From an uncultured virus (IMG/VR IMGVR_UViG_3300046170_000428) (lineage: Duplodnaviria; Heunggongvirae; Uroviricota; Caudoviricetes), in IMG/VR virus record IMGVR_UViG_3300046170_000428: a stretch of 64,000 bases of DNA; one strand, given 5' to 3'. Positions 19,089 through 61,880 of the stretch are shown piece after piece (position 1 is the first letter of the stretch; each line of letters opens with the position of its first letter). The notes beneath the pieces are model-generated. The model ran no database searches. It was not told where the DNA came from and was given only the letters and a program-made list of their open reading frames with translations. The position numbers and the translations under genes were made by a program.

Positions 19089-20054
19089 ATGGCAATTACA
19101 TCTGTAGATAAAAATCGTAGAGAACCTGTTCTTAAAAGATCAGAAGTGTCGACTGTCTTACCTGAATGGTTTGAACAGTCTAATCCTAAGCTTATTCAAT
19201 TTTTAGAAGCTTATGAAGAATTTCTTGATAGTGATGCCGGTAAATTTAATTTCCATCAAAAAATTCAAGATGTATTTGCTGCGAGAGATATTCCAGATAC
19301 AGATGAAGATTTCTTAGATCAGATTATTGGAGAGATTGGTAACGGATTAACTCAAGCTTCTTTTTTTGATAAGCCTAGACTTATGGCAAGGTTACTTGGT
19401 AACTTTTATCAACAAAAGGGAACTAAACCTGCAGCTGAAGGTTTTTTTCGTGGTTTTTTTGGTGAAGAGATTGAAGTAATATATCCAAAAAAAGATATAT
19501 TTATTGTAGGCCAAGATGAAATTGGATTTGATTCACAGAAATTTATTCAAGATGCAAGACGTTTTCAGATTTTTTCTATATTAATTAAGTCCGGTCTTTC
19601 AGTTTCAGATTATGAAGAGCTATATAAAAGATTTGTACATCCTGCAGGTTTTCATCTTGCCGGTGATGTTTTAGTACAAACTGAAACTAGCATAGGAACA
19701 GTTATAACTTTACATGATCCGCTTGAAGTAGAAGAAACAGATCCACTTTTTGTAGGTACTGCGTCTTTTGAAACTAATACATTATTCGGAGAACACACGG
19801 CATTACAAGATTCATCAGATGGTACAACATTTAGAATTGATCTTCGTCAACAAGAACTACTATACTATACTACTGACTCAGACCTTGATATTCAAGATTG
19901 GATTACATATTATGATGATATAAAAACATTGCTTAATCCTAATTCATTTACACTAGATGATAGTGCTAATTCTGGAAGACCAGATATGGCAATGTCTATA
20001 GAAACTTTAGATAATGACTTTTTTACTCGAATTTCTTCAGATTCGGCGATATAA
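19089..20054 (+). CDS. gp7: baseplate wedge initiator gp7-like (short)
   Basis: LP.WF....P..IQFLEAY, FYQQKGT, YK.FVHPAGF; follows gp6. Confidence 0.7.
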   Translation: MAITSVDKNRREPVLKRSEVSTVLPEWFEQSNPKLIQFLEAYEEFLDSDAGKFNFHQKIQDVFAARDIPDTDEDFLDQIIGEIGNGLTQASFFDKPRLMARLLGNFYQQKGTKPAAEGFFRGFFGEEIEVIYPKKDIFIVGQDEIGFDSQKFIQDARRFQIFSILIKSGLSVSDYEELYKRFVHPAGFHLAGDVLVQTETSIGTVITLHDPLEVEETDPLFVGTASFETNTLFGEHTALQDSSDGTTFRIDLRQQELLYYTTDSDLDIQDWITYYDDIKTLLNPNSFTLDDSANSGRPDMAMSIETLDNDFFTRISSDSAI

Positions 20055-20057
20055 ATA
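20050..20057 (+). promoter_or_regulatory. T4-type late promoter TATAAATA
   Basis: Exact motif overlapping the gp7 stop. Confidence 0.7.
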
Positions 20058-20076
20058 ACCTAAACAGGATAAAAAC

Positions 20077-20898
20077 ATGGCACGAAAAAATTTAGGTATT
20101 GGATCATCAGCAAACGATGGAACTGGAGATACGCTCCGTACTGCTGGTGGGAAAATTAATGATAACTTTATTGAAATCTATCGCTTTTTAGGTGGTGGAG
20201 ATAGTGATAATTTATCTTCACAAATTTCACTTGAAGATAGCGCTGTAGTATTTGAAGGTGCCACTCCAGATGATTTTGAAACAAGACTTACCGCAGTTAA
20301 TGCAACAGCCGATAGACAAATTCAATTACCAGACGCAGATGGTATTGTTACACTTAATGATGTAACGCAAACACTAACTGCTAAAACATTATCTGCTCCA
20401 ACTATTAACTCTCCAAAAATGAGTTTAATTGTTGACTCAAGTGGTAATGAATTAATTACATTTACAAAGGCAGCTTCTGCAATTAATAATATTGCGATCG
20501 GAAATACTGCTTCAGGTAATAGTCCAACTATTGATGCTGTTGGAGGTGGAACAAATTTAAATTTAGAACTTGCTGGTAAAGGTACAGGTTCTGTAGATAT
20601 TCAATCTAAGTTTTCTTTAAAGGCTGTTACGATAACAGCTGATGGTGCGGCATCAACTGCGGCATCATATATTATATGTAATAAAGCTTCAGGCCTGGCT
20701 GTCAGCCTTGCAGATGGTACGGTTGTTGGAGAACAAAAAATATTTTCAAATAAAGGTGCCGGTGTTGCAACAATAACACCCGCTAATTTTGCAGCTGGCA
20801 CAAGTTTCGCAATTGCCCAAAATGAGGCAGCGACATGTATTTGGGATGGAACAAACTGGTTCCTTTGTGGTAACCAATCAGTAACGACGGTGGCATAA
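20077..20898 (+). CDS. baseplate/tail-fibre connector with gp9/gp10-type N-terminus
   Basis: GIGSSANDGTGDTLRTAGGKINDNFIEIY. Confidence 0.75.
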   Translation: MARKNLGIGSSANDGTGDTLRTAGGKINDNFIEIYRFLGGGDSDNLSSQISLEDSAVVFEGATPDDFETRLTAVNATADRQIQLPDADGIVTLNDVTQTLTAKTLSAPTINSPKMSLIVDSSGNELITFTKAASAINNIAIGNTASGNSPTIDAVGGGTNLNLELAGKGTGSVDIQSKFSLKAVTITADGAASTAASYIICNKASGLAVSLADGTVVGEQKIFSNKGAGVATITPANFAAGTSFAIAQNEAATCIWDGTNWFLCGNQSVTTVA

Positions 20899-20899
20899 T

Positions 20900-22268
20900 A
20901 TGACAGCAATTGTAACAGATCCATTTAAAAGAAAACTAGCAAGTGATCTATTAACAGAAGTACAAAGTACTACTGACTCTAATGAGTTTTATATTGGTAT
21001 TGGTAAAACTGATACCTATGACTCATCGGATACTACTATCACTCCGATTCGACATACTTTTGAAGAAAGAGTTGGTAGAGGTAATCTTGAATCAATTAAA
21101 AAGGTTACAGCTTCTTCACAAGTTGTAACAAGAAATAATTGGTCATCAGGAACAATTTATTCTGCTTGGAATGATAAACAACAAGGATATCCTACAAATC
21201 CATATTATGTTTTAACTGAAGATAATGAAGTTTATATTTGTTTACATCAAAGCAAAAGTTCAACTGGATCCGCAAACGCATCTACAGTTAAACCATCATT
21301 TAGTGATGCAGGGGTAAATCAAGTTCAAGCATTTGAAACATCAGATGGTTATCGTTGGAAACTTTTATATGCTATATCTGCTGGTGATGCATCTAGTTTT
21401 TTAACTGCTGCTTTTCATCCAGTACAAGTTGTAACAGTAGATTCTGGATCTGCTACTATTACTCAACTTCAACAATTGAATATTCAAAATACTGTAACTC
21501 CTGGTCAAATTATAGGTGTTCAGGTCGTTGACGGTGGCAGTGGTTATTCATCAGCTCCGGCATTAACCTTTCGTGGAAATGGTACGGGTGCTGCGGCAAC
21601 GGCAACAATTAGCGGTGGTGCAATTGTTAAAGTTGAAATGGATAATGAATCAGGCGGATTAGGTTCAGGATATGATTATGCTTCATTAAGTTTTACAGGT
21701 AATGCAACGTTAAGACCAATTATTGGTCCAAGAGATGGTATTGGTAAAAACGCGACTGCTGATTTAAAATCATCTAGTGTGATGTTTAATATTAAACCTG
21801 AAGGATCAGAAACAGGTACATTTAATATTACAAATGATTTTAGGACAAATATCATTATTTAAAAATTTAGATCTTACAGACTCTGCTTCTCCTGGTGGAA
21901 GATTTAGCGGAGTGAGTGCAAAAGTTAATAGAAATATGACACTAACTCAAGATATCACCACTACAGGATTTGCAGTTGATGAAATAATTACAGGTGGAAC
22001 TTCAGGGGTAACAGCTATTATCGATGAGGTTGATTCTGGTGGCGGTAAGATTATTCGCTTTCATCAAAACGAAAAAACACAAAATGGAAACTTTACAGAC
22101 GGTGAAGCACTTACCGGAAGTTTAGGTGCATCAGGTACAGTAGATAGCGGAAACCTTTTTGGATCTATAGATATTTACTCTGGAGATCTATTATACATAG
22201 AGAATAGAGCAAGAATTGTTCGATCTGCAAGTCAGACCGAAGACATAAAAATAATTTTGACGGTGTAA
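20900..22268 (+). CDS. gp8: baseplate wedge subunit gp8, broken by a +1 frameshift near 21843 (ORFs 20900..21862 and 21834..22268)
   Basis: RNNWSSGT.Y, YYV....VYICL, DGYRWKLLY in the first part; SGDLLYIENR....R...QTEDIKIIL in the second. Removing one G restores NDFRQISLFKN. Confidence 0.85.
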
Positions 22269-22272: not shown

Positions 22273-25200
22273 ATGGCAACAGCATTTACCACTACTACAT
22301 TTGAAACTACGTATAAAGACGATTTTAAAGATTCTGATAATTATCATAGAATTCTTTTTAATAGCGGAAAGGCTCTGCAAGCACGTGAGCTTACGCAGAT
22401 GCAAACTATTATTCAAGAAGAAATAAGTCGATTTGGTTCAAATATTTTTAAAGAGGGTGGTAAAGTTAATGGTGGTAACCTTACTCTTAATCCTAGAGAG
22501 TTTATTAAATTAACAGCAGGTGCTTTACCTGATGACGCGAGTACTGTTGTTGGTGAAGAATTTATAGATGACGATGGAATTAAAATCAAAATATTAAAAG
22601 CAGTTGAAGAAGTTGATTCAGATCCGGATACAATTTATGTAGAATATATTGATAGATTAAGTGGAACATCAGGTACATCAGTTATTCGTTGTGCTAACGG
22701 TAATACACTTACACATCTTGGAGCTACACTTGATCCATTAACAATTGCCTCGACAGATGCTACAGGCGAAGGTTTAGAAGCTTCAATTTCAGCCGGTTCT
22801 TTTTATATTCAAGGTAGATTTGTATTTGCCAAAGCACAGTCTATATTTGTTAGTAAGTATTCTAAAACCCCTACAAAAGATCTTGGATTCAAACTTGAAC
22901 AAGATATCGTAACAATTGCTGATGATACAGCTTTATTCGATAATCAAGGCGCAGTTCCAAATGAAGCATCTCCTGGTGCTGATCGTTGGAGAATTAAACT
23001 AACACTTACTACTCGTGATCAACTTGCAGCTGATGAAAATTTTGTATATATTACAGATATTATTAATGGTAAAATAGGACAAGAAGTAACTCAAGATAAT
23101 TCTTATAATGTTATTTTAGATACTTTAGCTAGACGTACAAAAGAAGAATCAGGTAACTATATTGTTCAACCCTATACTGCTAAATTTGATGCTCTTAATG
23201 ATTCAAATCTTTCGCTTAATGTTACTGGCGGTATTGCTTATGTTGAAGGATATAGAATTGCAACTAATGCTGCGGATATTACCGTACCAAAAGCACAAAC
23301 TACTTTAGAAAGAGCTGGCGATACTGTTATTCCAGTTTATGGTAATTATATTTTATTTGATTCAAACTATAATTTACCAGAACTTCATTCCAGAGCAATA
23401 CTTACAGACGCTGCCGCTGCCGGTGGAAATAAACTTGGTACAGCTAGAATTCGCCATTATGAAGAAGATGGTGCAGATCATAGAGCATATCTTTATGATA
23501 TAAAAATGGATGCTGGTAAAAACTTTTCTAGTACCGCTTCAATTGGTGCCAATAATCAAGATTATATTAATGTTAAACAAGAATCTAGTAGAGCTGTTTT
23601 AAAAGATACAATAAGAAATAATTTACTCTTTCCATTACCTAATACAAGGCCTTCTACAATTGCATATACTGCATCAAATGATATTACTCTACAAAAAAAA
23701 TATACAGTAACAACAAATGCTTCTGGAGTATTAGCTTCAAACCAAGTAATTAGCGGTGGTAATACATTTACTAGTAGTTCATCATGGGTTGTTACTAGAA
23801 CTGATGGTGTTATCGATACCCTCACATTTGATATTACACTCGGTACACCAACTGGTTCAGAATTTAATATTACTGGTGGTGCAGATAATAACCAAACATA
23901 TGACATTTATGCTTTACAAACTCATAAAGGACCAACAAATTTTTCAGCTAAAAGTAAATCGTTAGCAACAGGAGTACCTCTTACTGTTAATATGCAAACA
24001 GACCTTGATTCTGATGGAAATGGTGCTAAATTCCTTTCATTAAGAAAAGCTGATATTTACAAAGTAGAAGAAATTGCGTTAAACTCTGCTGGTGGTACAG
24101 ATATTTCAAATTTCTTTGAAATTGATAATGGTCAAAGAGATAACTTTTATGATATCGGTAGATTAAAAGTTAAGTCAGGGGTTTCGCTTCCACAAGGAAA
24201 TGCGTTTATTCGATTTAGACATTTCACTCATTCAACTTCTGGTAGTCATTTTGATGTTACATCATATCCAACTGGTGATAGTGTGGGTTATGCTGGAATT
24301 CCAGATTATAGAAGAAATGATGGAGTAACAATCAATTTAAGGAATGTTCTTGATTTTAGACCTATTGCCGGAGTACTTGCTGATTCTGCCGGAGTTGCAC
24401 AACACACATTTGATTCAGCTGGTGGTGGTAGTCAAATTGTTCCATTACTTCCAGTTAGTGGTAATTCATTTGATGTTAATCCGACTTATTATCTTCCACG
24501 GCTTGATAGGCTCATACTTGCTACAGCTGATGATGAAAAAAGACCATTACCTAGAGGCGAATTAAAATATATTGAAGGTGTTCCTGATTTTATACCGGCA
24601 TTACCTAATATTCCAACTGGATCATTATTACTTCAAAACTTTAAATTAAATGGATTTACTCTTAATGAATCTGATTTAAGTTCAAAAGTATTTGAAGCAA
24701 AAAGATTTACAATGGCAGATATTCAACGCCTTGAAGATCGTATTGATAATTTACAAAATTTAACTGTATTAAGTCTTTTAGAAAATTCAACTGAAGCACT
24801 TACAGTCCTTGATTCTGCAGGTCTTGCAAGAACAAAGGCTGGATTTATTGCAGATACATTTAGAGACTATACATTTTCAGATGTTTCAAGAGAAGAATAT
24901 AGGGCATCCGTTGAAAATAGAAATGGTTTATTAGTGCCTTTAGTTGTCATGAACGATTTTAGATTACTTTATGATTCTGCTAATTCAACATCAGTACGTG
25001 GTAAGACAAAAGGTTTAGCACAAACTGGAGACATGATAACTCTCCCAATTGATTCTAGTCATGTGTTAATAGATCAGTCTCTTGCAACTGAAACTGAAAA
25101 TGTTAATCCATTTTCAGTTATTACTGGTAGAGGTCTTTTAGAATTATCTCCAGCATCTGATACTTGGGTTGAAAGACGTAGAGCTCCAGAAGTAATTGTT

Positions 25201-25371
25201 GATGGTGGTACAATTGTTAATACAAGAAGAGTGGAAATTGCATTTGGAACTAGAAACTCAAGTAATCTTGGTAGTACGCAAGATGGTGCACCAGATGAAG
25301 ATGATGATACTGATGATACTAGTAATGGCGTATCGGCTGAAACAGCTGGACCAGGACAAGAGTCCGTATAG
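22273..25371 (+). CDS. large virion structural protein, VrlC/DUF4815-like N-terminal part
   Basis: Y.DDF....NYHRILF..G.ALQARELTQMQTI.Q, PGADR, LARRT.EESGNY, KRFTMADI..LE.RI.NL, ENVNPF.V. Confidence 0.85.
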   Translation: MATAFTTTTFETTYKDDFKDSDNYHRILFNSGKALQARELTQMQTIIQEEISRFGSNIFKEGGKVNGGNLTLNPREFIKLTAGALPDDASTVVGEEFIDDDGIKIKILKAVEEVDSDPDTIYVEYIDRLSGTSGTSVIRCANGNTLTHLGATLDPLTIASTDATGEGLEASISAGSFYIQGRFVFAKAQSIFVSKYSKTPTKDLGFKLEQDIVTIADDTALFDNQGAVPNEASPGADRWRIKLTLTTRDQLAADENFVYITDIINGKIGQEVTQDNSYNVILDTLARRTKEESGNYIVQPYTAKFDALNDSNLSLNVTGGIAYVEGYRIATNAADITVPKAQTTLERAGDTVIPVYGNYILFDSNYNLPELHSRAILTDAAAAGGNKLGTARIRHYEEDGADHRAYLYDIKMDAGKNFSSTASIGANNQDYINVKQESSRAVLKDTIRNNLLFPLPNTRPSTIAYTASNDITLQKKYTVTTNASGVLASNQVISGGNTFTSSSSWVVTRTDGVIDTLTFDITLGTPTGSEFNITGGADNNQTYDIYALQTHKGPTNFSAKSKSLATGVPLTVNMQTDLDSDGNGAKFLSLRKADIYKVEEIALNSAGGTDISNFFEIDNGQRDNFYDIGRLKVKSGVSLPQGNAFIRFRHFTHSTSGSHFDVTSYPTGDSVGYAGIPDYRRNDGVTINLRNVLDFRPIAGVLADSAGVAQHTFDSAGGGSQIVPLLPVSGNSFDVNPTYYLPRLDRLILATADDEKRPLPRGELKYIEGVPDFIPALPNIPTGSLLLQNFKLNGFTLNESDLSSKVFEAKRFTMADIQRLEDRIDNLQNLTVLSLLENSTEALTVLDSAGLARTKAGFIADTFRDYTFSDVSREEYRASVENRNGLLVPLVVMNDFRLLYDSANSTSVRGKTKGLAQTGDMITLPIDSSHVLIDQSLATETENVNPFSVITGRGLLELSPASDTWVERRRAPEVIVDGGTIVNTRRVEIAFGTRNSSNLGSTQDGAPDEDDDTDDTSNGVSAETAGPGQESV

Positions 25372-25387
25372 TAAAGGAATTTAATAG

Positions 25388-27506
25388 ATGACACATAGCC
25401 CAGGACATGATATAGTAACTACGAGAAGACAGGTAGTTGGTACGCGAGTTATCGATGTGCAATTAATTCCATTTATGCGTTCTAGAAAAGTATTCTTTAG
25501 AGCTAGAGGATTAAGGCCGAGAACAAGATATTTCCCATATTTTGGAAGAACTGCTATCGATGATTTTACAAGAAGTGAAACATCTTTCGAAAGATTTGCT
25601 ACAAGAACTGACGATAATACAAATTTATTTTTTAATGATACTGCGCACCCAGATGGATCTTCAAACTTAACATCAGATTCAGCTGGTGAAGTAATTGGTT
25701 CATTTATTGTTCCAAATACTGCTACGACGAAATTTAGAGCTGGTGCACAAGAATTTAAATTATTAGATATTTCAGGTGGTGTTGATGCTAATGCTATTAG
25801 TTTAGCGCGAACAAATTATAATGCTCAAGGTGTAATTGAAACTGTTCAAGATACTGTACGTGTTACAAGAATTATTGATAGAACAATATTTGTTGAACCA
25901 GAACGAAGTGATGGTCCTGATGGTGCCATCTGAACCATTAGCACAATCTTTCTTTATTAATCCTATTGATCATTCTAATGGTATTTTTATAACTAAAGTT
26001 AGACTTTATTTTTCATCTAAATCTTCAACAGTTCCTGTACAAGTTCAAATTAGACCTGTGGAAAATGGTATTCCAACATCATTTCCTATTCCTGGAGCAA
26101 TAACCTTTAAAGCTGCCTCTGAAGTCACTATTCCGAGCGATTTAACTGATTTAGATAATATTCGATCAAACGGTACAGACTTTGAATTTGAAGAACCAGT
26201 ATATTTAACTCCAGGTAGAGAATATGCAATAATAATTTTAGCAGAAAGTATTGATTACAATATTTTTGTTGCTAAGATTTATGACTTTTTAATTGGTACT
26301 ACTGCAAAACGAGTAAATAAACAGCCGACACTTGGTTCTCTATTTTTGTCTCAAAATGCATTTACATGGACTCCAGATCAAGACAGAGATCTTATGTTCC
26401 AAATTTACCGTGCAGATTTTGCAACATCAGGAATTGCTAAATTTACAAACGCTACTGATATTAGAGAAAAATTACCATTTCCATCAATATTAACAGATTC
26501 TGGTGGAACTGAATGTCACGTATTTATGGATGGTCATGGATTTGCAAAAAATGATAAAGTATTTGTTCAAGGCGTGACTGATGCATCTGTAACTGGAGCA
26601 TTTAGTTTTGCGAGTTCAATTAACGGCTCAAGAACTATTACAAAGGTCGATCATACAGGATTTACGTTTGCTGCAGATTCAAGTGCGGCAAGGTCTTTAT
26701 TAGTAGGTGGAAATGATACAGTTGTGACCCGTAATTATATGTATGATGAATTTTTTCCAAATATTGCAGCATTGCAACCTTCAGGTGGAACAACTATTGC
26801 TGCAAGTGCTAAATTAGTAAATGGTTCTTCATATGCCGGAAACAGAAATACTAATCCTACTTATACTAAAGATGCATCATATAGTAGCATTACTTTAAAT
26901 GAAAGAAATTTCTTAACTTCACCTAATGTTGTTTTAAATGATTCGAATGCAGTTGTACATAGTGTTTCAGGAGCTTCATTTGATTTACAGCTCAATTTAG
27001 CAACTGATGATACTAAAGTTTCGCCAGTTATTGATTTACAACGTGCAGCTGTATTAGCTACAGAAAATATTATTGATAAACAAGATGCATCTGTAACTAC
27101 AAATTTTAACGTTCCAATTACATTTGTTGATGAAACCGATAGATCACAAGGGTCGCATGGCGCTAAACATGTTACAGTACCAGTAATTTTAGAAGAACAG
27201 GCTGTCGGACTGAATATATTATTTTCTGCTAATCGACCATCTGCAGCAGGATTTAGAGTATATTATAAAATAGGAACAACTGATGATGATCTAGATGATC
27301 TACCATATGTTGAAATTGCAGAGGAAACGAATAATCCAGCCGATGAATTTAGAGGCCCATACAGAGAATATCAATATCTTCCTGGTGGTCAAGTCGGTAA
27401 TTTAGATGCATTTACTAAATTTCAAGTTAAAATTGTTATGACATCAACAAACTCATCTAGATTTCCAATTATTAAAGATTTAAGGGTAATTGCACTGGTT
27501 ACATAA
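25388..27506 (+). CDS. VrlC-like C-terminal part (ORFs 25388..25933 and 25920..27506, probable +1 break near 25926)
   Basis: IPFMRSR, GLRPRTR, EPLAQSFF, GSLFLSQN..TW...Q..DLMF, F..FQVKIVM.S......P.IKDLRVIAL; own SD AAGGA. Confidence 0.75.
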
Positions 27507-27727
27507 TGAATAAATATAGTAAAGTTGACGGACATAATGGATTAGTAAGAGCTCCTAATGGAGCCGTACTAAATGTAGATAAGCAAGCGATATCGCAAGC
27601 TAGAAACAGAAAAAAGATTTGGAAAGAACAACAAGAGGAACTTGCACAACTTCGTGATGATGTTGCTATAATGAAACAAATGATGCAACAATTATTAGAG
27701 GATAAAAATGGCTCAAACAGTAATTAA
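27506..27727 (+). CDS. small coiled-coil protein following the VrlC-like gene
   Basis: KVDGH.GLVR...GAVLN.D, C-terminal heptads. Confidence 0.7.
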   Translation: MNKYSKVDGHNGLVRAPNGAVLNVDKQAISQARNRKKIWKEQQEELAQLRDDVAIMKQMMQQLLEDKNGSNSN

Positions 27728-28292
27728 TCTATCTGATCCTATTAATACTTGGGTAACTAAGTCAAATGAAATGGGAGCAGATATCGGAGATTTGGCAACG
27801 CTGACTGATTCAGCCGCAACCCTCGTACACGCAATAAATGCACTTGACTCAGATATTGGTAATAGAACATCACTAAATACAAGTGTAACAACTAGTTTAG
27901 TTGCCGCTATTAATTCAATTCAATCCGACTTTTTAGAACAAACAGACTCTGCAGAAGTTAAAAACTTCTTTACAAGTAGTACAACAATTAGTTTTGATAG
28001 TGGTACTCCTGTAGGAGCACGTGGACAGTTTTCATTAGTTGACTCTTCTGTTACTGCGGCTAAATTAGCAAGTAATATTATATCAACTGAAAAGATTATA
28101 GATAATACAATAACATTAGCAAAGATGGCAGATAACTCGGTTGGTACTGCCGAGCTTATAGACTCATCAATTACTGAAGCTAAAATACAGATAAATACGA
28201 TAACATCAGCAAGTTTTAAAAATTCTACATCTATAATAATAAAAAACACAGCTGGTACGGCATTAAAAACGATTTTTGGACCTGGAGAATAA
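27708..28292 (+). CDS. short fibre/whisker-like structural protein
   Basis: INLSD.INTWVTKSN, SLVAAINS, [DN]S.VT.AK[LM]A pentad repeats; C-terminus shared with fibre 56504..59170. Confidence 0.65.
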   Translation: MAQTVINLSDPINTWVTKSNEMGADIGDLATLTDSAATLVHAINALDSDIGNRTSLNTSVTTSLVAAINSIQSDFLEQTDSAEVKNFFTSSTTISFDSGTPVGARGQFSLVDSSVTAAKLASNIISTEKIIDNTITLAKMADNSVGTAELIDSSITEAKIQINTITSASFKNSTSIIIKNTAGTALKTIFGPGE

Positions 28293-32668: not shown

Positions 32669-32700
32669 TAACGTCCTTATTCTTCAGATATATAGTATAT

Positions 32701-32729
32701 ATTATAACACATAATGAATGAATTGTACA
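32701..32729 (-). promoter_or_regulatory. early-type promoter TGTACA-N17-TATAAT for the GT/MTase operon
   Basis: Minus strand TGTACA (32724-32729), 17 nt, TATAAT (32701-32706); AAGGA SD before the ATG at 32668. Confidence 0.7.
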
Positions 32730-32741
32730 TAGGAAATTTTA

Positions 32742-50921: not shown

Positions 50922-50924
50922 TTG

Positions 50925-51803: not shown

Positions 51804-52458
51804 ACAGCCATTATTAATAACTGGAGGTTGTAGTTTTGGAGACCCTAAAGAACCTGATTATAAAAATAGCGTAACAGTTTGGCCAATAGTTGTTTCTAAA
51901 ATTTTAGATATTAAATTATTAAATGTTTCGAAACAAGGAGCTAGTAATGACTATATTGAAAATATAGTATTTGATTCTATTTTACAAAATTATGAAAATT
52001 ATGATATACAAGTTATGGTACTTTGGACTGGCGCAGATAGAGTCAATGTATTTGACACGGATACTTATCCTGGAAATCACCAAGGTTACGATCAAAAGAA
52101 AATATTAAATAAAACTTTTCGTAATATAAAAAGATTAGATTTAATTTGTAGACAGTTTAATATTCCTTGCTATCATAGAATAGGTATAGGATTTGAAAAT
52201 AGCGATGAGTTGAATGAATGGTTAATTAAACATCCAATATTAAAAGAATTTAATTTATCGCTTTTTGAAATTATAAGTGGAAGATGGTCAAGTACAGGTG
52301 AAGGTGCTCATGCTCAATGGGTATTAGAAAATGGTCATCCGAATCAAGACGGTCAAAACGCAATTGCACAAATGTTCATAGATACTATGAATAATATACC
52401 ACTTGGAACATTAGGTACACAATCGAATTTAATTGAGGATAATTTTATTTATGACTGA
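51790..52458 (+). CDS. SGNH/GDSL-like protein 4
   Basis: GGCSFG, GASND, NGHPNQDG. Confidence 0.75.
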   Translation: MSIIKQPLLITGGCSFGDPKEPDYKNSVTVWPIVVSKILDIKLLNVSKQGASNDYIENIVFDSILQNYENYDIQVMVLWTGADRVNVFDTDTYPGNHQGYDQKKILNKTFRNIKRLDLICRQFNIPCYHRIGIGFENSDELNEWLIKHPILKEFNLSLFEIISGRWSSTGEGAHAQWVLENGHPNQDGQNAIAQMFIDTMNNIPLGTLGTQSNLIEDNFIYD

Positions 52459-53551
52459 TTTGAAATGGAGTCAATACGACTTTACAAAAATACCATTTGA
52501 TAATATAGTTAAAGTCGGTCAAAGGACTATGCTCCATCGAGACTTATTTACGGTGAGTTGGTTACTTGGTAGATTTTGTAATTATTCATGTTCTTATTGT
52601 TGGCCGTATGCATCTAGTCGAGTGAAAGATCATAGACCTATTGATTTGATTCTTATGACAATTGACGAGATTAAACGCCAATCTCGTGATAATGGATATA
52701 ATTCTTTTCATTTTAGTTTTAGTGGTGGTGAACCTACGTTTCATCCACAATATTTAGAAATTATGAAATATCTTGCAGACGATGTTCCTAATACTAACTA
52801 TCATTCCGTACATATGACTTCAAACATTTCACGTAAAATGAAATGGTTTGAAGAATATGCTAAAATTTGCGCTAAGTTTAATAGATCAAGTATTACCGCA
52901 TCATGCCATAGAGAACATGTTGATACTGATGCTAAAGTTGCAGATTTTGCAGATAAGTTAGAATATTGCCAAAGCCAAGATATTCAAGTTACAATTAACC
53001 AAGTAATGCTACCTGATAAGTTCGAACAGTGCTGGGATGACGCATTATATTTTCATGAAAGGGGAATTAATGTCACTCTTAAGCCTCAGTCTGATCCTAC
53101 TGCCAGCTTTATTGTTAATGGCTATACTGATGATATGCTTCAACGACTACATAATGGAATGCCTCAACGAGGATTTACCGATATCAAAAAACAAATATCG
53201 CGGCCGAAGCCAAAAGTGGAACTTGATCTCCGCTATGAAACGACTGGTGTTCCACAACATATGCAAGTTGAATTGGAGGATAGTAAAGGAGCCAAGTATT
53301 ACATGGATCAAGCTGAAAGATTTAATGCGTTTAACTTTAATAATTTTAGTGGTTGGAATTGCGAGTCAGGCTATCGTAGTATTATTATTCGTGAGCCTGA
53401 TGGCAATATTAAACGAAGCTACTCCTGTGATGACGAACCTTTAGGAAATATTACTACCGGATTTAAATTATTTGATAAACCAATGCCATGTATCACAAAA
53501 AGTTGTGTTTCTTCTGCCGATTCTAAGATTCCAAAAACTAAAAATGTATAA
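52451..53551 (+). CDS. radical SAM enzyme 11 (related to enzyme 5)
   Basis: CNYSCSYC, SGGEP, MTSN; C-terminal N.FSGWNCESG...C...PCITKSC. Confidence 0.9.
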   Translation: MTDLKWSQYDFTKIPFDNIVKVGQRTMLHRDLFTVSWLLGRFCNYSCSYCWPYASSRVKDHRPIDLILMTIDEIKRQSRDNGYNSFHFSFSGGEPTFHPQYLEIMKYLADDVPNTNYHSVHMTSNISRKMKWFEEYAKICAKFNRSSITASCHREHVDTDAKVADFADKLEYCQSQDIQVTINQVMLPDKFEQCWDDALYFHERGINVTLKPQSDPTASFIVNGYTDDMLQRLHNGMPQRGFTDIKKQISRPKPKVELDLRYETTGVPQHMQVELEDSKGAKYYMDQAERFNAFNFNNFSGWNCESGYRSIIIREPDGNIKRSYSCDDEPLGNITTGFKLFDKPMPCITKSCVSSADSKIPKTKNV

Positions 53552-53605: not shown

Positions 53606-53962
53606 ATGGCTCAGTACGAAGAAATTACAATAGATCAAGGCACCGACGTGGCTATACAACTAGAATTAGTTGATAACACTGGCGCTGCTAAATCTTTAAC
53701 CGGCTATTCTGTCACGGCAAAGATGAAAAAGAACTATAATTCTACTGATTCAAGCGATATTCAAAGTTTTACGTCAATTGTTGCTAGTCCATCTACTGAT
53801 GGTATTGTAACTCTGTCATTAACTAATTCTCAAACCGATGCGCTAAGAGCTGGACGGTATGTATATGATGTAGAACTTTCTTATGTCGATAGTGACGCTA
53901 ATACTATTGTAGAAAGAATCCTTGAAGGCCGAGTTCAGGTTACGCCATCAGTCACTAAATAG
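53606..53962 (+). CDS. small virion structural protein (BppU-like)
   Basis: ITIDQGTD, LTGYS..A.MKK.Y, G.VTLSLT..QT..L..GRYVYDV, RILEG.V.V.P.VT. Confidence 0.7.
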   Translation: MAQYEEITIDQGTDVAIQLELVDNTGAAKSLTGYSVTAKMKKNYNSTDSSDIQSFTSIVASPSTDGIVTLSLTNSQTDALRAGRYVYDVELSYVDSDANTIVERILEGRVQVTPSVTK

Positions 53963-53970: not shown

Positions 53971-56466
53971 ATGCGAGTACTGGTCGAACAAAGGACCTAC
54001 GTTAAAAGAGTTATAGTTGGCACACCTATTGCAAGCGTTAGAGAAGCAGGCATAGTTGATTCGGATGCTACACTTGCAATCGTTTTAGCCAATTCAATTG
54101 ATTCTGCCGAAGTAATTAACTTAATTGATTCAGCATATGTTCAAGCAAGACAAGTAGATCTGCAACGAGATTCGTCGTTTGTAACAGGTATTCTTGATAG
54201 TTCTCTAGGCGCACTTACAAATTCAATTATTCCGCATATTGACAGTTCGATCGATCTTGGTTCTCCAACTAAAAAATTTCGTAGATTATATCTTTCAGGT
54301 AATACTATTGTCCTTGGTGATTTAACACTTGGTGATGAAAGCGGTACATTTGTTATTAGAGATTCATCTGGTACAATATCAGCAGTTAATTTAGATGGTA
54401 ATACTACATCAGACCTCGCAGAAGGTTCAAATCTTTACTATACAAGAGCCCGATTTGATTCAGCTCTTAATGATACTATTTCAGATAGTGCTATTCGTAG
54501 TAAGTTTTCTGCATCAGGCGACATATCATATGATTCAAGTACAGGTCAATTTAGTCTAGATGTTGAAACCGTATACACACAGGCAAACTTTGAATCAGAT
54601 TTAAGTTTATCGCTTAATGCTACTAATGGTATTTCATACGATTCTTCTAATCATAAACTATCGCTTATAAACACCGGTGTTGATTCAGGCATTGTCGGTT
54701 CATCAACTCAAATTCCTATTCTTACAATTAATGCTCAAGGTAGAATTGATGCCGTTAGTACGGCAATAACTTTAGATTCATCTACAGCAATTAATCTTAT
54801 AGACTCTTCTTATGTAAGATCTCGGCAGATTACTTATAACACAAGCGACTTTACTGATAGTGCATATGTTATAGCTCAAATTAACAATTTAATTGATGGT
54901 GCTCCTGGTACTCTTGACACACTAAATGAAATCGCAGCGGCTCTTAATGATGATGATTCAGCTTATAATACACTTATTGGATTAATTGCTACTAAAACCG
55001 ATTTTGATTCTGCTGATGCAATTGCACTTATTGATTCTGCATATGTTCAGCTACGGCAAACACCACAAGATTTTGCATATAGTTCATTAACTGGTACACC
55101 TACTATTCCAACTTTTGGTACAGACTTTGTTGACTCTGCATATGTAGAATCAACTATTGATTCTGCTTATATCCAAGCACGTCAGCAATTGGTCGACTCG
55201 GCAAGCATTGTTCAGTTGGTAGATTCCACTTATGTTCAAGCAAGACAAATTACATACACAACTGCGGACTTTACTGATTCAGCTTATGTTACTGGATTAC
55301 CAGTAAGCACTTTTACAAATGATGCTAATTATCTTGATAGTACAAGTGTTCAAGGTGTCATCGATGCATCTTATATACAAGCAAGACAAACAACCTATGA
55401 TTTCTTAGATTCTAGCGAAGCTATAGCTCTTATCGATTCTGCATATGTTCAAACAAGACAAATAACTTATAATACATCAGATTTTGTTGATTCAGCTTAT
55501 GTCACTGCGCAAATCAACGCCCTTATTGCTGGAGCACCCGGAACACTAGATACTCTTGATGAAATTGCGGCCGCATTAAACGATGATGACTCGGCTTATG
55601 GGACTTTAGTTGGACTTATCAATGCTAAATCAGACGTTGATAGTATTGGCTCGTTAAGTAATGTAACTTATGGTGTGCCGAGCGAAGGTCAAATATTAAA
55701 GTATGATAGTGCCACTTCAAAATTTATTTTATCTGCAGATACAGGTGGAATTGATTCTGCCTATTTAGAAGCTAATTCACTTGATTCTGAAAGAACAATA
55801 TCGCTTATAGATTCATCATATGTTAATGCCCGAGTACAAGATCTTACTGGTGATGAATTTACATTTACTTTAGTTGATAGTGGCGCAATTGCAGGACCAA
55901 GAATAGTACTTGATAGAAATAGTTCATCTCCTGCAGATTCAGATGCATTAGCAAATATCGAGTTTAGAGGTAGAAATAGTGCAGATTCTAGTATCCAATA
56001 TGGTAAAATAGCAACATTTATTAATAACGCGACTGCAAATGCTGAAGTTGGTGAAATGCAATTCATCATTAAGCAATCTGGATTCGAACGCGTTAAAATG
56101 AAATTGAATTCTCAAGGTATAGTGCTTGATAATAGTGAGTCAATAGTATTCTCTGATGATTCAAATAGTCAATTATTATCACCAGGAAATTATACAGCTG
56201 ATCACGTTTTAACACTACCAGATTCAAGTGGTATTATTGCAACACGTAATCACATAACTACACTCATAGATTCAGCATATGTTCAACGAAGACAAAGCGA
56301 TGTAGAAACTGGGTTTTCTCTTGATTTTGCTGATAGCGTTGGAACTGTATTAGTTTCGCTTCCAATCGTTCAAGCAGCATCGATTGCAACTGGAGCTGTT
56401 GTTGGTTTTGGTAATTCAGTAACATTATTAGATAAAGATAGTGCAGAAGTAATCATTCAACTTTAA
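53971..56466 (+). CDS. fibre-like structural protein with many DS[A/S]Y repeats
   Basis: DLGS.TKKFRRLYLSG, EGSNLYYT.AR, two APGTLDTL.EIAAALNDD fibre motifs, repeated IDSAYVQARQ. Confidence 0.75.
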   Translation: MRVLVEQRTYVKRVIVGTPIASVREAGIVDSDATLAIVLANSIDSAEVINLIDSAYVQARQVDLQRDSSFVTGILDSSLGALTNSIIPHIDSSIDLGSPTKKFRRLYLSGNTIVLGDLTLGDESGTFVIRDSSGTISAVNLDGNTTSDLAEGSNLYYTRARFDSALNDTISDSAIRSKFSASGDISYDSSTGQFSLDVETVYTQANFESDLSLSLNATNGISYDSSNHKLSLINTGVDSGIVGSSTQIPILTINAQGRIDAVSTAITLDSSTAINLIDSSYVRSRQITYNTSDFTDSAYVIAQINNLIDGAPGTLDTLNEIAAALNDDDSAYNTLIGLIATKTDFDSADAIALIDSAYVQLRQTPQDFAYSSLTGTPTIPTFGTDFVDSAYVESTIDSAYIQARQQLVDSASIVQLVDSTYVQARQITYTTADFTDSAYVTGLPVSTFTNDANYLDSTSVQGVIDASYIQARQTTYDFLDSSEAIALIDSAYVQTRQITYNTSDFVDSAYVTAQINALIAGAPGTLDTLDEIAAALNDDDSAYGTLVGLINAKSDVDSIGSLSNVTYGVPSEGQILKYDSATSKFILSADTGGIDSAYLEANSLDSERTISLIDSSYVNARVQDLTGDEFTFTLVDSGAIAGPRIVLDRNSSSPADSDALANIEFRGRNSADSSIQYGKIATFINNATANAEVGEMQFIIKQSGFERVKMKLNSQGIVLDNSESIVFSDDSNSQLLSPGNYTADHVLTLPDSSGIIATRNHITTLIDSAYVQRRQSDVETGFSLDFADSVGTVLVSLPIVQAASIATGAVVGFGNSVTLLDKDSAEVIIQL

Positions 56467-56503: not shown

Positions 56504-59170
56504 ATGGCAGATAGAATTCCACTAATTATTGAGGGATCGAGTATTCGAGAGATTCCGTCAGCTGACAGACTTGATGTCCAAGGGGCATTAGAAGTCAATG
56601 GGGATATTACACCCGGAACTGATTCGGCATACGATATTGGTACATCGTCACTTAAATTTAGAGATATTTACTTATCGGCTGGTACTATTCACCTAGGTGG
56701 TGTAAAGTTAAGAGCTGATGGTAATACATTATCTATTCAAGACAGTACTGGAGCATCCTCCGGTGTTGCAACTACATCTCTTGCAACAATAAGTACTGAC
56801 GATCTTTCTGAAGGTTTAACTAATCTCTTCACTACAGCAGCTCGAACACGAAGCCATATTCAAGTAACAGATGCTGGTGGTGATGGTTCTCTTACCTTTG
56901 ATTCTGCCTCAGGTTTATTTACATATACTGGACCTTCTGCTGCTGAAATAAGAGCTCACATGAATGTAGTTGATGCTGGTGGAGATGGATCATTTACTTA
57001 TGATTCAGCAACAGGTCAATTTACTTATACTGGTCCAAGTGCTAGTGAAGTACGAGCACATATTACGGCAAATAAAGGTGTAAGTATTACATCAGGCGAA
57101 ATTAATGTCGACTCTGCAAATATAAGAGGAATATTTTCCGCAGTTGATTCTGGCGGAGACGGAGCTTTTTCTTATGAAGAAGATACTGGTAAATTCATAT
57201 ATCGTGGACCATCTGCCACAGAAGTAAGAGCTCATATTAATGTAGTTGATGCTGGTGGAGATGGATCTTTTACTTATGATTCTGCTCTTGGAAAGTTAAC
57301 ATACACTGGACCTGATGCTACTGAAGTAAGAGCACATTTTAGTGCTGGTGAAGGTATTGATCTGGCTTCTGGCGTTATTTCTGGAGAAGATGCAACAGAT
57401 GTTAATAAAGGTATTGCTTCATTTAGTAGTGATCACTTTGACGTTACATCAGGTGCAGTTACTATTAAAGCTGATGGAATAGATGATACACATATTGATT
57501 TTGGTACAGGAACAAATCAAGTTAGCACTGCAGATATTCCAGAACAAACTAATCTATATTATACAGATGCTCGAGCTGACAGTGATGCAAAGAATGCTAT
57601 ATCTTTAACTTTTACTGGAGGTGATGGTGCAGCATCATATACACCAGCAACTGGTGTTATTTCAGTCACTGGACCATCTGCTGCTGAAGCAAGAGCACAC
57701 TTTAGTGGTGGAAATGGCGTAACTATTACAGACGGTTCTGTAGCAATTGGTCAACCTGTAGCTACTACCGATTCTGTTACTTTTGCTGGGATGACAGTTA
57801 CTGGTGATTTAAATGTTTCAGGTACAACAACTTCGGTTAATTCAATTTCTTATACTGTTAATGATCCATTAATTCATCTTGCTGATAGTAATGAGGTCGC
57901 TGATGTAGTTGATATTGGTTTTATAGGTCATTACTATCGAGATGGAGCGCGAAGACACGCTGGTTTATTTAGAAATGCTGATGACCAATCATTTAATTTG
58001 TTCAATAACATGGTTGACTCTGCATTTGATAGTGCGCTTCCACCAAACGTTATTAATACTGGAGCAACAGGATATACTTTAGCTAACTTGAATGCTGGTA
58101 CTGTTACTGGTACTTTTGTTGGTAACGTAACTGGTAATGTAACTGGAAGCTCTGGATCAACAACTGGTAATGCGGCAACTGCTACCGCTTTACAAACAGG
58201 AAGAACAATTGGTTTAAGTGGTGATGTTACTGCAACAGGTGTAAGTTTTGACGGAACAGGTAATATTACTCTTACTACTGCTATGGCAAATAATAGTGTT
58301 GATTTAACAACACATACTACTGGTAATTATGTTCAACAAGGTGCTACATCTGGTAACGGTATCTCAGGTTCAGTTAACTCAGAAGGCGGAACATTCACTG
58401 TAACATCAAATGCTACAAATGCAAATACAGGAAGTACAATTGTATTTCGAGATGGTTCAGGTAACTTCAGTGCAGGAACAATTACTGCCGCTTTAAGTGG
58501 TAATGCTTCAACTGCTACTAGCTCAACTAACTCTACTAATGCAACAAACTTTAACGTTGCTGCTGATAATAGTACTAACGCCACACATTACGTTATTTTT
58601 ACTGGTGGTGCCACTGGTAATCAGAGACCTAATTCTGATACTACATTAACATATAATCCATCTTCAAATACTTTATCAACTACTACGTTTTCTGGCGCTT
58701 TATCCGGTAATGCAACTACTGCTACCACTCTCCAAACCGCAAGAACTATCGGTGGTGTATCATTTAATGGTAGTGCAAATATTAACTTACCAGGTGTCAA
58801 TACAACTGGTAATCAAAATACTTCTGGTAATGCAGGTAGTGCTACTGTTTTACAGACTGCAAGAACTATTGGTGGTGTATCATTTAATGGTAGTGCAAAT
58901 ATTAACTTACCAGGTGTTAATACTTCTGGTAATCAAAACACTTCTGGTAATGCCGCAACTGCAACTGCATTGGCAACTGGTAGAACAATTTCTCTTACTG
59001 GAGATGCTACTGGAACATCTGGATCATTTAATGGTACAGGTAACGTAAGTATTTCAGTTGCTTTAGCTGCAAATACAGTATCTTCGACTGAATTAGTAAG
59101 TGCAAGTACATTGTTAATTAAAAATACAGCTGGAACAACGATTAAAACTATTATTGGAGCGGGTAGCTAA
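56504..59170 (+). CDS. tail fibre protein
   Basis: DIGTSSLKFRDIYL, DAGGDGS.TYDS..G..TYTGPSA.E.RAH repeats, GNAATATAL.T.RTI and GVSFNGSANINLPGV fibre repeats. Confidence 0.8.
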   Translation: MADRIPLIIEGSSIREIPSADRLDVQGALEVNGDITPGTDSAYDIGTSSLKFRDIYLSAGTIHLGGVKLRADGNTLSIQDSTGASSGVATTSLATISTDDLSEGLTNLFTTAARTRSHIQVTDAGGDGSLTFDSASGLFTYTGPSAAEIRAHMNVVDAGGDGSFTYDSATGQFTYTGPSASEVRAHITANKGVSITSGEINVDSANIRGIFSAVDSGGDGAFSYEEDTGKFIYRGPSATEVRAHINVVDAGGDGSFTYDSALGKLTYTGPDATEVRAHFSAGEGIDLASGVISGEDATDVNKGIASFSSDHFDVTSGAVTIKADGIDDTHIDFGTGTNQVSTADIPEQTNLYYTDARADSDAKNAISLTFTGGDGAASYTPATGVISVTGPSAAEARAHFSGGNGVTITDGSVAIGQPVATTDSVTFAGMTVTGDLNVSGTTTSVNSISYTVNDPLIHLADSNEVADVVDIGFIGHYYRDGARRHAGLFRNADDQSFNLFNNMVDSAFDSALPPNVINTGATGYTLANLNAGTVTGTFVGNVTGNVTGSSGSTTGNAATATALQTGRTIGLSGDVTATGVSFDGTGNITLTTAMANNSVDLTTHTTGNYVQQGATSGNGISGSVNSEGGTFTVTSNATNANTGSTIVFRDGSGNFSAGTITAALSGNASTATSSTNSTNATNFNVAADNSTNATHYVIFTGGATGNQRPNSDTTLTYNPSSNTLSTTTFSGALSGNATTATTLQTARTIGGVSFNGSANINLPGVNTTGNQNTSGNAGSATVLQTARTIGGVSFNGSANINLPGVNTSGNQNTSGNAATATALATGRTISLTGDATGTSGSFNGTGNVSISVALAANTVSSTELVSASTLLIKNTAGTTIKTIIGAGS
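58739..58954 (+). repeat. tandem 120-bp-period direct repeat in the fibre gene
   Basis: 58741-58800 and 58861-58920 differ at only two positions. Confidence 0.85.
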
Positions 59171-59925: not shown

Positions 59926-59929
59926 TGGT

Positions 59930-60823
59930 ATGGCCCGAAACTACTATATAAGGGATAATGTAAGATCTGAACAGAATCTCTACGAAGATATTGTAATTGA
60001 ATCTCTCAAAATTTACGGACAAGATGTATATTATCTTCCGCGTGATACCGTATATGAGGATAGAATTTTTGGTGATGAAATTCCTGCACGATATAATTCA
60101 AGTTATAAAATAGAAATGTATATCGACAACATCGAAGGTTTCGATGGTGAGGGCGACTTATTTACTCGATTTGGTGTAGAAATCAGAGACGAATGTACAT
60201 TTGTTGTATCAAGGCGTAGATGGAATCAAACAGTAGGTGGTGATAACAATATTAATAGTGAAAGACCGCGCGAAGGCGATTTAGTGTATTTACCGCTTTC
60301 AAAATCTATGTTTCAAATAACTGCGGTAGAAAATGATCAACCATTTTTTCAATTATCTAATCTTCCTGTATTTAAATGCCGTGCACATTTATTTGAATAT
60401 AATAGTGAAGATTTTGATACTGGTATTGAAGAAATTCAAGATATCGAAGAAAACTATGGATACACATATCTGTTAAAGATTTTAGGTGCAGATATAAACA
60501 ACAGAAAACCAATATATCCAGGCAATATTATAACACAGAATCAAAGTGGTGTATTAGTTACAGCCGAGGTTGCTAAATATTCAGATTCAGATGGAACAAT
60601 TCATGCTGTGAACCTATCTTCATCAGATGCAACATTTAAACTATTCCAGGCTGATAGCTCAATTACTGTTGATTCTAATGCTAACATACATACAATTCAA
60701 ACAGTTTCTGAATTAAATAAACTTTCAGAAGATGAACAGAATACAGATTTTGGAACATTTGGTGATGATTTCCTAGATTTTAGTGAATCAAATCCATTTG
60801 GAGATCCATCGGGGAATGACTAA
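59930..60823 (+). CDS. gp14: neck protein gp14
   Basis: EQ.LYED..IES.KIYG.DVYYLPR, GF.GEGD...RFG, RP.EGDL.Y.P, PFFQL, DFSE.NPFG. Confidence 0.95.
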   Translation: MARNYYIRDNVRSEQNLYEDIVIESLKIYGQDVYYLPRDTVYEDRIFGDEIPARYNSSYKIEMYIDNIEGFDGEGDLFTRFGVEIRDECTFVVSRRRWNQTVGGDNNINSERPREGDLVYLPLSKSMFQITAVENDQPFFQLSNLPVFKCRAHLFEYNSEDFDTGIEEIQDIEENYGYTYLLKILGADINNRKPIYPGNIITQNQSGVLVTAEVAKYSDSDGTIHAVNLSSSDATFKLFQADSSITVDSNANIHTIQTVSELNKLSEDEQNTDFGTFGDDFLDFSESNPFGDPSGND

Positions 60824-61086
60824 TGAGTGACGATTTTTTTGATTTTGGCTTTACAGCTGTCGACGAAAATGAATTAGAAGCAGTTCAAAAAATTACTTCA
60901 AAAGCAGAAACTCTTGGTGCTTCTGCAATGAATACTCAAGAGAAGATAGATAAATTATATAATGCAATTATACCATTATTAAATAACTTAAAGAAAAACC
61001 CAGAAAAGGAATATATTCTCTGGCCGGATCGGTTAAATAAAGTAGAACAATTCGAAACGCATTTACAGAAAATATATAATAGCTAA
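60823..61086 (+). CDS. small hypothetical protein between gp14 and gp15
   Basis: FDFGFTAVDE, PLL.NL..NP.KEYI.WP.R; TAATG coupling on both sides. Confidence 0.7.
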   Translation: MSDDFFDFGFTAVDENELEAVQKITSKAETLGASAMNTQEKIDKLYNAIIPLLNNLKKNPEKEYILWPDRLNKVEQFETHLQKIYNS

Positions 61087-61880
61087 TGTTTGGTGGACAC
61101 TTTTATCACGAAAAAACTAGAAAAGCAGTTGCTATATTTGGCAAACTGTTTAATAATCTATATGTAATTCGTAAAAATCAAACTACTGGTGCATCTACTT
61201 CTCAAGTAAAAGTTCCATTAGCGTATGCTCCGAAAGCAAAATACCTAAGTCGTATTAAAGAAAATCCAGATTTAGCAGCAAATGATGGAGTAGCAATTAA
61301 ACTACCGCGTATGTCATTTGAGATTACTTCATTGACATATGATAATACTAGACAAGTATCGAAAGTAAATAATTTTACACGATACGGAACTAATGACAAT
61401 AATAGAAATAAATTTTATACGGCAGTTCCATATAATATTACATTTCAGTTAAACATATACACAAAAACTCAAGATGATGCTCTTCAACTTGTTGAGCAAA
61501 TTTTACCTACATTTAATCCACAATATTCAATAACACTTAAACCTTTTGCTGATTATTCTGATATTTTAGAAGATATTCCAATTACAATATCTGGAGTATC
61601 ATTTCAAGATGATTTTGAAGGTGAAATAGGTGCCCGTAGAACTATTATTTACACTATGGATTTTGAAATGAAAATATCATATTATAGTGGTATTAGTACT
61701 GGCCCAATTGTTCGTGATGTTAGGGCAAAAATTTTTGATATCGGTGCAGGATTAAGTGATTCTGATATTAGACTAAAAACAATTCAGGTGCTTCCCAATC
61801 CAACAACATTAAACATTTTAGGTGATTCAGATTTTGGATTTACAAGGATAGATTATGCCGCAGACTCCGACGCTTCGTGA
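61086..61880 (+). CDS. gp15: tail sheath stabiliser/terminator gp15
   Basis: FYH...RK.V..FG.LFNN, VPLAYAP..K, LPRMSFE, DD.LQ.VEQILP.F.P, RR.IIYT. Confidence 0.95.
   Translation: MFGGHFYHEKTRKAVAIFGKLFNNLYVIRKNQTTGASTSQVKVPLAYAPKAKYLSRIKENPDLAANDGVAIKLPRMSFEITSLTYDNTRQVSKVNNFTRYGTNDNNRNKFYTAVPYNITFQLNIYTKTQDDALQLVEQILPTFNPQYSITLKPFADYSDILEDIPITISGVSFQDDFEGEIGARRTIIYTMDFEMKISYYSGISTGPIVRDVRAKIFDIGAGLSDSDIRLKTIQVLPNPTTLNILGDSDFGFTRIDYAADSDAS

Follow-up and report, generated by a model that had tools for sequence, protein, structure and literature searches.

Several described systems come close to the one treated here. Maf flagellin glycosyltransferases (Magnetospirillum, Clostridium, Geobacillus) O-glycosylate serine or threonine with nonulosonates, Kdo (3-deoxy-D-manno-oct-2-ulosonic acid) or Neu5Ac (N-acetylneuraminic acid) being possible as well, and their catalytic acidic residues are given as E324/D415 (bioRxiv 10.1101/2020.06.03.131540). 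In Bacteroidota, O-glycosylation follows the sequon D-(S/T)-(A/I/L/V/M/T), extended with S/G/C/F, and concerns exported proteins only (PMC8729774). Mycobacteriophages Che8, Corndog and Myrna are reported to bear glycans on the C-termini of capsid and tail tube proteins, the glycosyltransferases being phage-encoded (Freeman et al. 2023 as cited in PMC12363180 and PMC12619734). Concerning marine phages, glycosyltransferases have been assigned to the host surface or to DNA (PMC12801897, PMC7029224), and the 'host recognition cluster' of pelagimyophages has been proposed to modify the host O-chain (PMC7029224). Here we analyse 64,000 nucleotides of an uncultured marine T4-like phage (IMG/VR record IMGVR_UViG_3300046170_000428; hereafter the window, meaning the whole stretch), in which many outer virion proteins share a short serine tag, D-S-[A/D/S/N/G], and whose first 528 nucleotides hold part of a gene for a CstII/Maf-fold glycosyltransferase-like enzyme, a candidate for the initiating step of a modification of that tag.

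The stretch extends from baseplate to terminase genes and has 33% G+C; judged by gp15, its nearest relatives in GenBank are Phage C48C1 (49%) and, at about 40%, pelagiphage Mosig and cyanophages, and many IMG/VR contigs are closer still. A first-pass annotation of this DNA had noticed the dipeptide DS scattered over peripheral virion proteins. We found that the sharper signal is D-S-[A/D/S/N/G] and not plain DS-x. In outer and neck proteins (the fibre-like protein at 53971 excluded), a small residue of this class follows 53 of 57 DS sites, against a background of 40% (p 3e-17); elsewhere, in hub, island and non-structural proteins, it follows 11 of 45. In the proteins listed by that annotation the tag occurs 48 times where 11.2 are expected, and non-fibre proteins alone hold 33 against 8.0. 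The narrower form DS[AD] reaches 32 against 5.5 in the outer proteins (5.8-fold), a value attained by none of 1000 shuffles within 30-residue blocks, and DSA and DSD are the two highest-ranked motifs containing S or T in the non-fibre outer proteins. Since the class A/D/S/N/G was defined after inspecting the window, it was re-scored on proteins outside it (see below). DS[AD] in dereplicated orthologues is 6.5 times expectation. The hexamers encoding DS occur 98 times in frame and 4 and 6 times in the two other frames, with mixed codons, and therefore selection acts at the protein level. A motif or repeat at the DNA level was considered and is ruled out by the same in-frame occurrence and mixed codons; repeat expansion of a single gene, which the first-pass annotation had also argued against, is ruled out by the excess in the non-fibre proteins.

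All the per-protein DS counts given by that annotation were reproduced on our recount; the genes concerned lie on the plus strand. The gp7-like wedge protein (19089..20054) has 6 DS, 5 with a small residue at +1; the gp9-like fibre connector (20077..20898) has 3 and the gp8 wedge protein (20900..22268, two frames here) has 6, all of them with a small +1. The VrlC-like protein (22273..27506) carries 11 in its N-part (10 small) and 4 in its C-part over two frames (4 small). All 6 sites of the short fibre-like protein of 194 amino acids (27708..28292) and both sites of the small fibre-assembly-like protein (53606..53962) have a small +1; in the tail fibre (56504..59170) there are 12 (10 small), all within residues 40-509, and since only 0.8 is expected in the distal part, the absence there says little alone. 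The gp14 neck protein (59930..60823) has 3, all small, in its C-terminal part, and the gp15 sheath terminator (61086..61880) has three DSD within its C-terminal 40 residues. The densest carrier, missing from the earlier list, is a fibre-like protein of 831 amino acids at 53971..56466, with 41 DS (36 small) where 11.0 are expected, that is one per about 20 residues, with synonymous codons mixed; its full-length orthologues (1082-1262 amino acids) have 40-47 each. As negative control, the inner-ring baseplate wedge protein gp6 (17249..19087, assigned by Pfam and PHROG) has 1 DS and none with a small +1, and gp53 and gp25 have none.

Even for plain DS, the proteins listed in the first-pass annotation hold, when pooled, 52 against 27.2 expected from their D and S content (about 1.9-fold, p 1.5e-5); p<0.05 is reached individually only in gp7, 27708 and 56504. 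Plain DS counts are 9 against 14.0 in hub and inner proteins, 11 against 10.9 in non-structural proteins and 25 against 28.9 in the island enzymes. The scarcity claimed for gp6, gp53 and gp25 stands as a count and is uninformative within the window taken alone (gp6 1 against 3.4, p 0.15; gp53 and gp25 together 0 against 1.2, p 0.29); the depletion of gp6 becomes clear in relatives, where DS[ADSNG] is found 12 times against 82 in 62 non-independent orthologues.

Two of these genes are interrupted in the window. The frame break of gp8 lies at 21834-21862 (shift near 21840-21850), and a relative 92% identical has a single open reading frame (ORF) of 455 amino acids; the split is probably a sequencing error. 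VrlC appears as three ORFs, broken at 25371-25388 and at about 25930. The first break recurs in relatives (about 1010-1040 plus 690-710 amino acids), others being fused at about 1700 amino acids, and the second, absent from relatives, looks like an error.

Residue specificity separates the tag from similar tripeptides and from the sequon of Bacteroidota. DT[AD], NS[AD], ES[AD], DA[AD], DK[AD] and DP[AD] all stay at or below 0.9 times expectation in the outer proteins of the window and in dereplicated orthologues, NS[AD] and DT[AD] ranging from 0.4 to 0.6, and DT overall is found 29 times against 39.8. As in the Bacteroidota sequon, an Asp stands at -1 of the residue proposed to be modified, and the two overlap at DSA, DSS and DSG. 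Unlike that sequon, the tag does not favour Thr (DT[AILVMT] 17 against 16.2), D or N at +1 is common (19 against 4.8) and a large hydrophobic +1 is depleted (DS[ILVMT] 3 against 11.1). Moreover, unlike the Bacteroidota acceptors, the carriers are virion proteins, which are assembled in the cytoplasm. On these counts the tag is not the Bacteroidota sequon.

We then evaluated where the tag sits in relatives, using two sets of 80: one anchored on gp15, of distinct yet related sequences that are not independent, and one of loci anchored on gp8, where one of the six seed peptides of the scan itself held a DS. In the gp15-anchored set DS[AD] is in excess in gp14 (133 against 19.8), gp15 (157 against 11.0), sheath (122 against 25.6) and capsid (14 against 4.1), and shows no excess in portal (5 against 8.2), gp13 (4 against 8.0) or terminase (0 against 13.1). 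In the gp8-anchored loci DS[ADSNG] reaches 331 against 62 in gp7, 434 against 106 in gp8 and 205 against 44 in gp9, and in the N-parts or full forms of VrlC of relatives it reaches 573 against 174. In contrast to the mycobacteriophage glycans, one tag recurs here at dozens of internal sites, spread over baseplate, fibres, neck, sheath and capsid.

Within single proteins the sites are restricted to certain domains. In 21 dereplicated sheath sequences the N-part has 96 sites against 21.4 and the last 300 residues have 2 against 8.8; these last residues align with T4 gp18 341-658, i.e. domains III-IV, which belong to the core or interior of the T4 sheath, domains I-II being exposed (PMC3004832). 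In the capsid the insertion region has 7 against 1.3 and the rest 0 against 1.0 (only 3 of 8 sequences matched the region anchors), and the sites fall in a stretch loosely aligned to the T4 I-domain linker and the I domain, which is at the capsid surface (PMC9546572). Judged from these T4 domain maps, from which alone exposure was derived, the tag appears to mark sheath and capsid of relatives in solvent-exposed domains; the exposure postulated by the first-pass annotation is supported to that extent, for these two proteins (a single-sequence model of a gp8 relative reached a predicted local distance difference test score, pLDDT, of 31). Alignment of orthologues revealed turnover of sites: among 21 sheath sequences 11 columns are recurrent and 10 are singletons, and among 44 gp8 sequences the figures are 19 and 10. 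The tag is lineage-specific, being absent from the orthologues of untagged phages. The non-fibre excess, the turnover of sites and the restriction to exposed domains support the proposal that selection across the virion has favoured an exposed tag in proteins that are not homologous.

The expectation that the tag would track the enzyme island of the window (29268..53551) did not survive the comparison of relatives. Tagged relatives have as few as 0-2 radical SAM genes: the contig G052 has two ORFs with the radical SAM motif in 77 kb (13 sites against 3.8) and G083:C7 has none in 35 kb (15 against 2.8). Conversely, Mosig and the complete genome G065 hold island-type genes, including homologues of the GT8-like ORF at 30303 (47% and 48%), and are untagged. 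The radical SAM island as partner of the tag is thereby rejected; it is not required for the tag and possibly elaborates a glycan. A gene that co-varies better with the tag is the CstII/Maf-fold ORF at 1..528 (plus strand; the 3' part, 175 amino acids, cut by the window edge), outside the coordinates that the first-pass annotation covered. Its product is 74% identical over 170 amino acids to a complete ORF of 233 amino acids in the relative G001.

The enzyme family has 1119 members at E<=0.001, and the nearest ESM Atlas clusters carry 94-100% viral labels and are unnamed, PF01973 appearing on 13% of members (a weak lead). The Pfam family PF01973 (MptE-like/DUF115) gave 13.2 and 13.5 bits in two members, below the cut-off of 34.6, and two others had no match to it; a sequence-profile search of PDB sequences with the family returned no sialyltransferase at E<=1, and there was no sialyltransferase match in Pfam or NCBIfam. 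The fold was predicted from a structural model (G001 ORF, 80 aligned members, pLDDT 89). Foldseek ranked CstII first (E 1.7e-4, TM-score about 0.45) with Maf 5mu5 at E 0.096, and VIA gave Maf 5mu5_A at Z 10.2 (172 aligned, root-mean-square deviation 4.0), CstI at Z 10.1 and a mammalian sialyltransferase at Z 8.0. D46, H125, D146 and D150 are invariant in the family alignment.

CstII and CstI add sialic acid to sugar acceptors, as the titles of PDB entries (trisaccharide acceptor) indicate. The phage enzyme resembles these Campylobacter proteins (PDB 1RO7, 2P56) in fold and differs from them in sequence (11-17% identity) and in a proposed acceptor that is protein and not sugar. With the Maf enzymes (Magnetospirillum PDB 5MU5) it shares the fold of the catalytic domain and solubility, and the proposed Ser O-linkage would likewise lie where a filamentous surface structure is exposed. 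Unlike Maf, a multi-domain chain of 632 amino acids acting on flagellin, it is a single domain of about 210-235 amino acids with 9% identity, and the acceptors proposed for it are numerous virion proteins that are not homologous and have a short tag in common. As a predicted single domain below the Pfam cut-off, it is on sequence grounds not a Maf member.

Around the enzyme, relatives have a second conserved glycan cluster, which in our phage would sit just 5' of the window. Over 80 loci the flanking genes include GT25 (75/80), GT8-like genes (73/80 and 59/80), RuBisCO-like genes (20/80) and methyltransferases. A BFVD search indicated a fold widespread among uncultured phages, with giant viruses having it too. 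Family matches in GTDB genomes number 14, on contigs of metagenome-assembled genomes (MAGs) of unrelated phyla, and the examined ones carry T4-like baseplate genes.

Co-occurrence of tag and enzyme was evaluated in 17 enzyme-bearing T4-like contigs: the 9 that hold gp8 among 35 viral contigs, 3 MAG contigs (gp8 was present in 4 of 5 MAGs, in 3 of them on the enzyme's own contig), and G001-G003, G062 and C48C1. Twelve of the 17 were chosen through the enzyme and not through the tag. In 14, DS[AD] in core proteins is 3.0-9.6 times expectation; in two the excess is in fibres only (C48C1, core 5 against 3.7 and fibres 23 against 5.9; G062, core 2 against 3.5 and fibres 21 against 5.4), and one, G046, is too short, with 280 amino acids scored. 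Four phages that lack the close enzyme lack the tag too: Mosig has 3 DS[AD] against 7.2, the complete G065 0 against 3.4, HTVC008M 8 against 9.0 and Syn33 6 against 11.3. C48C1 had been considered as a clean negative control and was dropped, as it carries the enzyme and has the tag in fibres and sheath. In a tree of 22 genomes (gp8 plus VrlC N-part, 820 columns, FastTree, rooted on Syn33) all contigs with the close enzyme fall into a single clade (support 0.86), and the C48C1 group lies within it. The T4-like phages thus represent one event, after which the tag withdrew from the core proteins of one sub-clade. G062 also encodes a protein of 5165 amino acids with 56 DS.

The second occurrence lies in an unrelated family. 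A search of 50,697 GenBank phages gave just two with a match to a member of the enzyme family, C48C1 and the 29.8-kb Phage DSL-LC06 (hhalign 97.7%). Nothing but the enzyme had led to DSL-LC06, and in its structural region DSA ranks first among the motifs (11 against 2.0). The complete relative G078 also encodes the enzyme. DSAG occurs 8 times in DSL-LC06 and 12 times in G078, where 0.22 is expected, and 0 times in four HTVC111P-type pelagiphages, all lacking the enzyme, whose capsid is about 45% identical. Besides the terminase, the non-structural genes of DSL-LC06 that match G078, G001, G002 and C48C1 but no HTVC control are two, one for the CstII fold and one GT8-like. Closer members of the GT8-like family occur in untagged pelagimyophages, where the CstII-fold gene exists only as a distant paralogue. 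DSL-LC06 and G078 have a glycan cluster with GT9, GT8-like, KpsC-like and FkbM genes, and their tag is sharper (DSAG).

From these data we consider it rather probable that the tag is an acceptor sequon and that the CstII/Maf-fold enzyme puts a CMP (cytidine monophosphate)-activated ulosonic acid on its serine, which would amount to virion O-glycosylation. D-S-[A/D, also S/N/G] would be the acceptor on solvent-exposed virion parts, and the soluble enzyme encoded at 1-528 would add the first sugar to serine. This sugar would probably be an ulosonic acid, either Kdo or a nonulosonate, drawn from a CMP-activated donor, Kdo being a general cytoplasmic donor in Gram-negatives. The variable GT8/GT25, methyl-, acyl-, carbamoyl- and radical SAM genes of the two glycan clusters may then extend and decorate it into a variable virion coat. 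The dedicated modification system suggested by the first-pass annotation is thus kept as the best reading; that the serine is modified, and by this enzyme, we infer.

If the tag is modified, another enzyme could read it (a GT8-like enzyme of the island, an unrecognised glycosyltransferase or a host enzyme), the CstII-fold enzyme capping or extending the glycan as CstII does on lipo-oligosaccharide. The GT8-like family is indeed present in DSL-LC06, G078, G001, G002 and C48C1 and in none of the four HTVC controls, of 80 loci, 75 have GT25 and 73 have GT8-like genes adjoining the enzyme, and the top Foldseek matches, CstII and CstI, are sugar-acceptor enzymes. However, no counterpart of these GT25 and GT8-like neighbours turned up in C48C1, DSL-LC06 or G078, and the window's GT8-like ORF at 30303 is closest to those of the untagged G065 and Mosig, far closer than to that of DSL-LC06 (E 1e-5). 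The host system of Bacteroidota is limited to exported proteins and takes DT and a hydrophobic +1, neither enriched here, and on balance we regard a different reader as unlikely. It is also quite unlikely that DS followed by a small residue is a structural preference (an Asx/ST turn, helix N-cap or hairpin) with no covalent change, linked to the enzyme by shared ancestry. D-x-x-G turns are common (D[^S][DNSA]G 82, DS[DNSA]G 97), many sites are conserved columns, one gp15 site stands opposite DDD/DGD in outgroups, and the fibre motif is located in helical repeats, all of which would fit such a preference. Asn and Thr are the usual substitutes in such turns, however, and this explanation is weakened because NS[AD] and DT[AD] stand at 0.4 and 0.5 times expectation; moreover, orthologues in untagged phages make the same proteins without the motif, and in an unrelated family the same tag again comes with this enzyme subfamily.

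A purpose other than sugar, be it a different modification of serine (phosphoryl, acyl, phosphopantetheinyl), the binding of cations or the docking of a protein from host or phage, we judge very unlikely. The island does contain acyl-, carbamoyl- and nucleotidyl-transfer-type enzymes, and acidic loops rich in D-x-D surround the capsid sites. However, D-S-L, the phosphopantetheine carrier motif, is found 0 times against 2.3, Asp stands at -2 in just 1 of 57 sites, the island is dispensable for the tag and the co-varying gene has a sugar-transferase fold.

Several observations weigh against O-glycosylation of the tag by the CstII/Maf-fold enzyme, and a few limit the signal of the tag itself. Concerning the enzyme, VIA also matches the non-glycosyltransferases SteA (Z 9.7) and HPPK (Z 8.8), and the fold is equally close to CstI/CstII, which act on sugars. 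Concerning the signal, gp9-like, gp8, the VrlC N-part, 53606, gp14 and gp15 individually miss p<0.05 for plain DS, and some peripheral proteins show no plain-DS excess (VrlC C-part 3 against 3.3, the ORF at 28296 1 against 1.8, gp13 0 against 1.2). A promiscuous cytoplasmic enzyme might have caused avoidance of DS[AD] in non-structural proteins, and none is seen in four tagged genomes (35 against 35.2); the enzyme may depend on a surface that is assembled or extended, or such modification may cost little. The co-occurrence comes down to about two independent events, with tag and enzyme marking a single clade among the T4-like phages, and the C48C1 sub-clade keeps the enzyme with no tag excess in gp7, gp8, VrlC, gp14, gp15 or gp23, the tag being confined to fibres and sheath in C48C1 and G062. 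A GT8-like gene is likewise common to DSL-LC06, G078, G001, G002 and C48C1. The HTVC controls have a slight DS[AD] excess (21 against 13.0, p 0.025), and seven fragments of the DSL-LC06 family of unassigned enzyme status are mixed, with 0-6 sites; fragments without an enzyme match (4 of 5) are incomplete and were not counted as negatives, and three that reach genes upstream of the terminase end before the enzyme's usual place. Pelagimyophages hold a distant paralogue of the enzyme without the tag, and a search for an alternative tag to go with it gave nothing comparably strong, the top motifs being SSS, SG and SGT. Finally, no sequon is known for Maf enzymes (PMC11339370); an enzyme that is small and soluble and reads a Ser sequon of three residues would, if confirmed, fill this gap for glyco-engineering. 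The distant paralogue is Mosig_00142 (L521:3399-4244) in Mosig and is found at three places in HTVC008M and in G065.

More broadly, and tentatively, for we would put this at somewhat under even, the data may reflect a mobile, sequon-directed cytoplasmic O-glycosylation, in which a phage-encoded enzyme of about 200 amino acids recognises D-S-(A/D/small) on the folded surface of the virion and attaches an ulosonic acid, on which swappable islands build a variable coat; its origin or transfer would have happened two times or more, in T4-like myophages and in 30-kb phages, the structural proteins evolving tags afterwards. If this is true, the large glycan islands of marine T4-like phages are at least partly loci for the virion coat and not for the host surface. 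Tag and named candidate enzyme make the virion hypothesis testable site by site, and if abundant marine virions wore a coat of sugar, this would matter for their adsorption, grazing and decay. Within the literature searched, which excluded supplements and the majority of subscription papers, no paper on the tag came up. As in the mycobacteriophages, phage-encoded glycosyltransferases are at hand (GT8-like, GT25 in relatives, CstII-fold), here read from genes.

The island itself, 24 kb between VrlC and the fibres and not enriched in DS, has the position of the pelagimyophage 'host recognition cluster', between VrlC and gp14, and resembles it in its GT8-like and radical SAM content; unlike the view of PMC7029224, our analysis suggests the virion as acceptor for at least some glycan genes of this clade. 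It contains 11 radical SAM genes, GT8-like genes, a NodU-like carbamoyltransferase, a QueC-like PP-loop protein, a HAD phosphatase and a nucleotidyltransferase. The radical SAM genes lie within 32742-53551, and three of them, above the NCBIfam cut-off, are of the twitch-domain type. Four paralogous ORFs at 49481-52458 have no Pfam match, and their motifs recall what we take to be those of SGNH acyltransferases. The HAD phosphatase and nucleotidyltransferase ORFs overlap (48108-49488) and are possibly one fused gene with a frameshift here.

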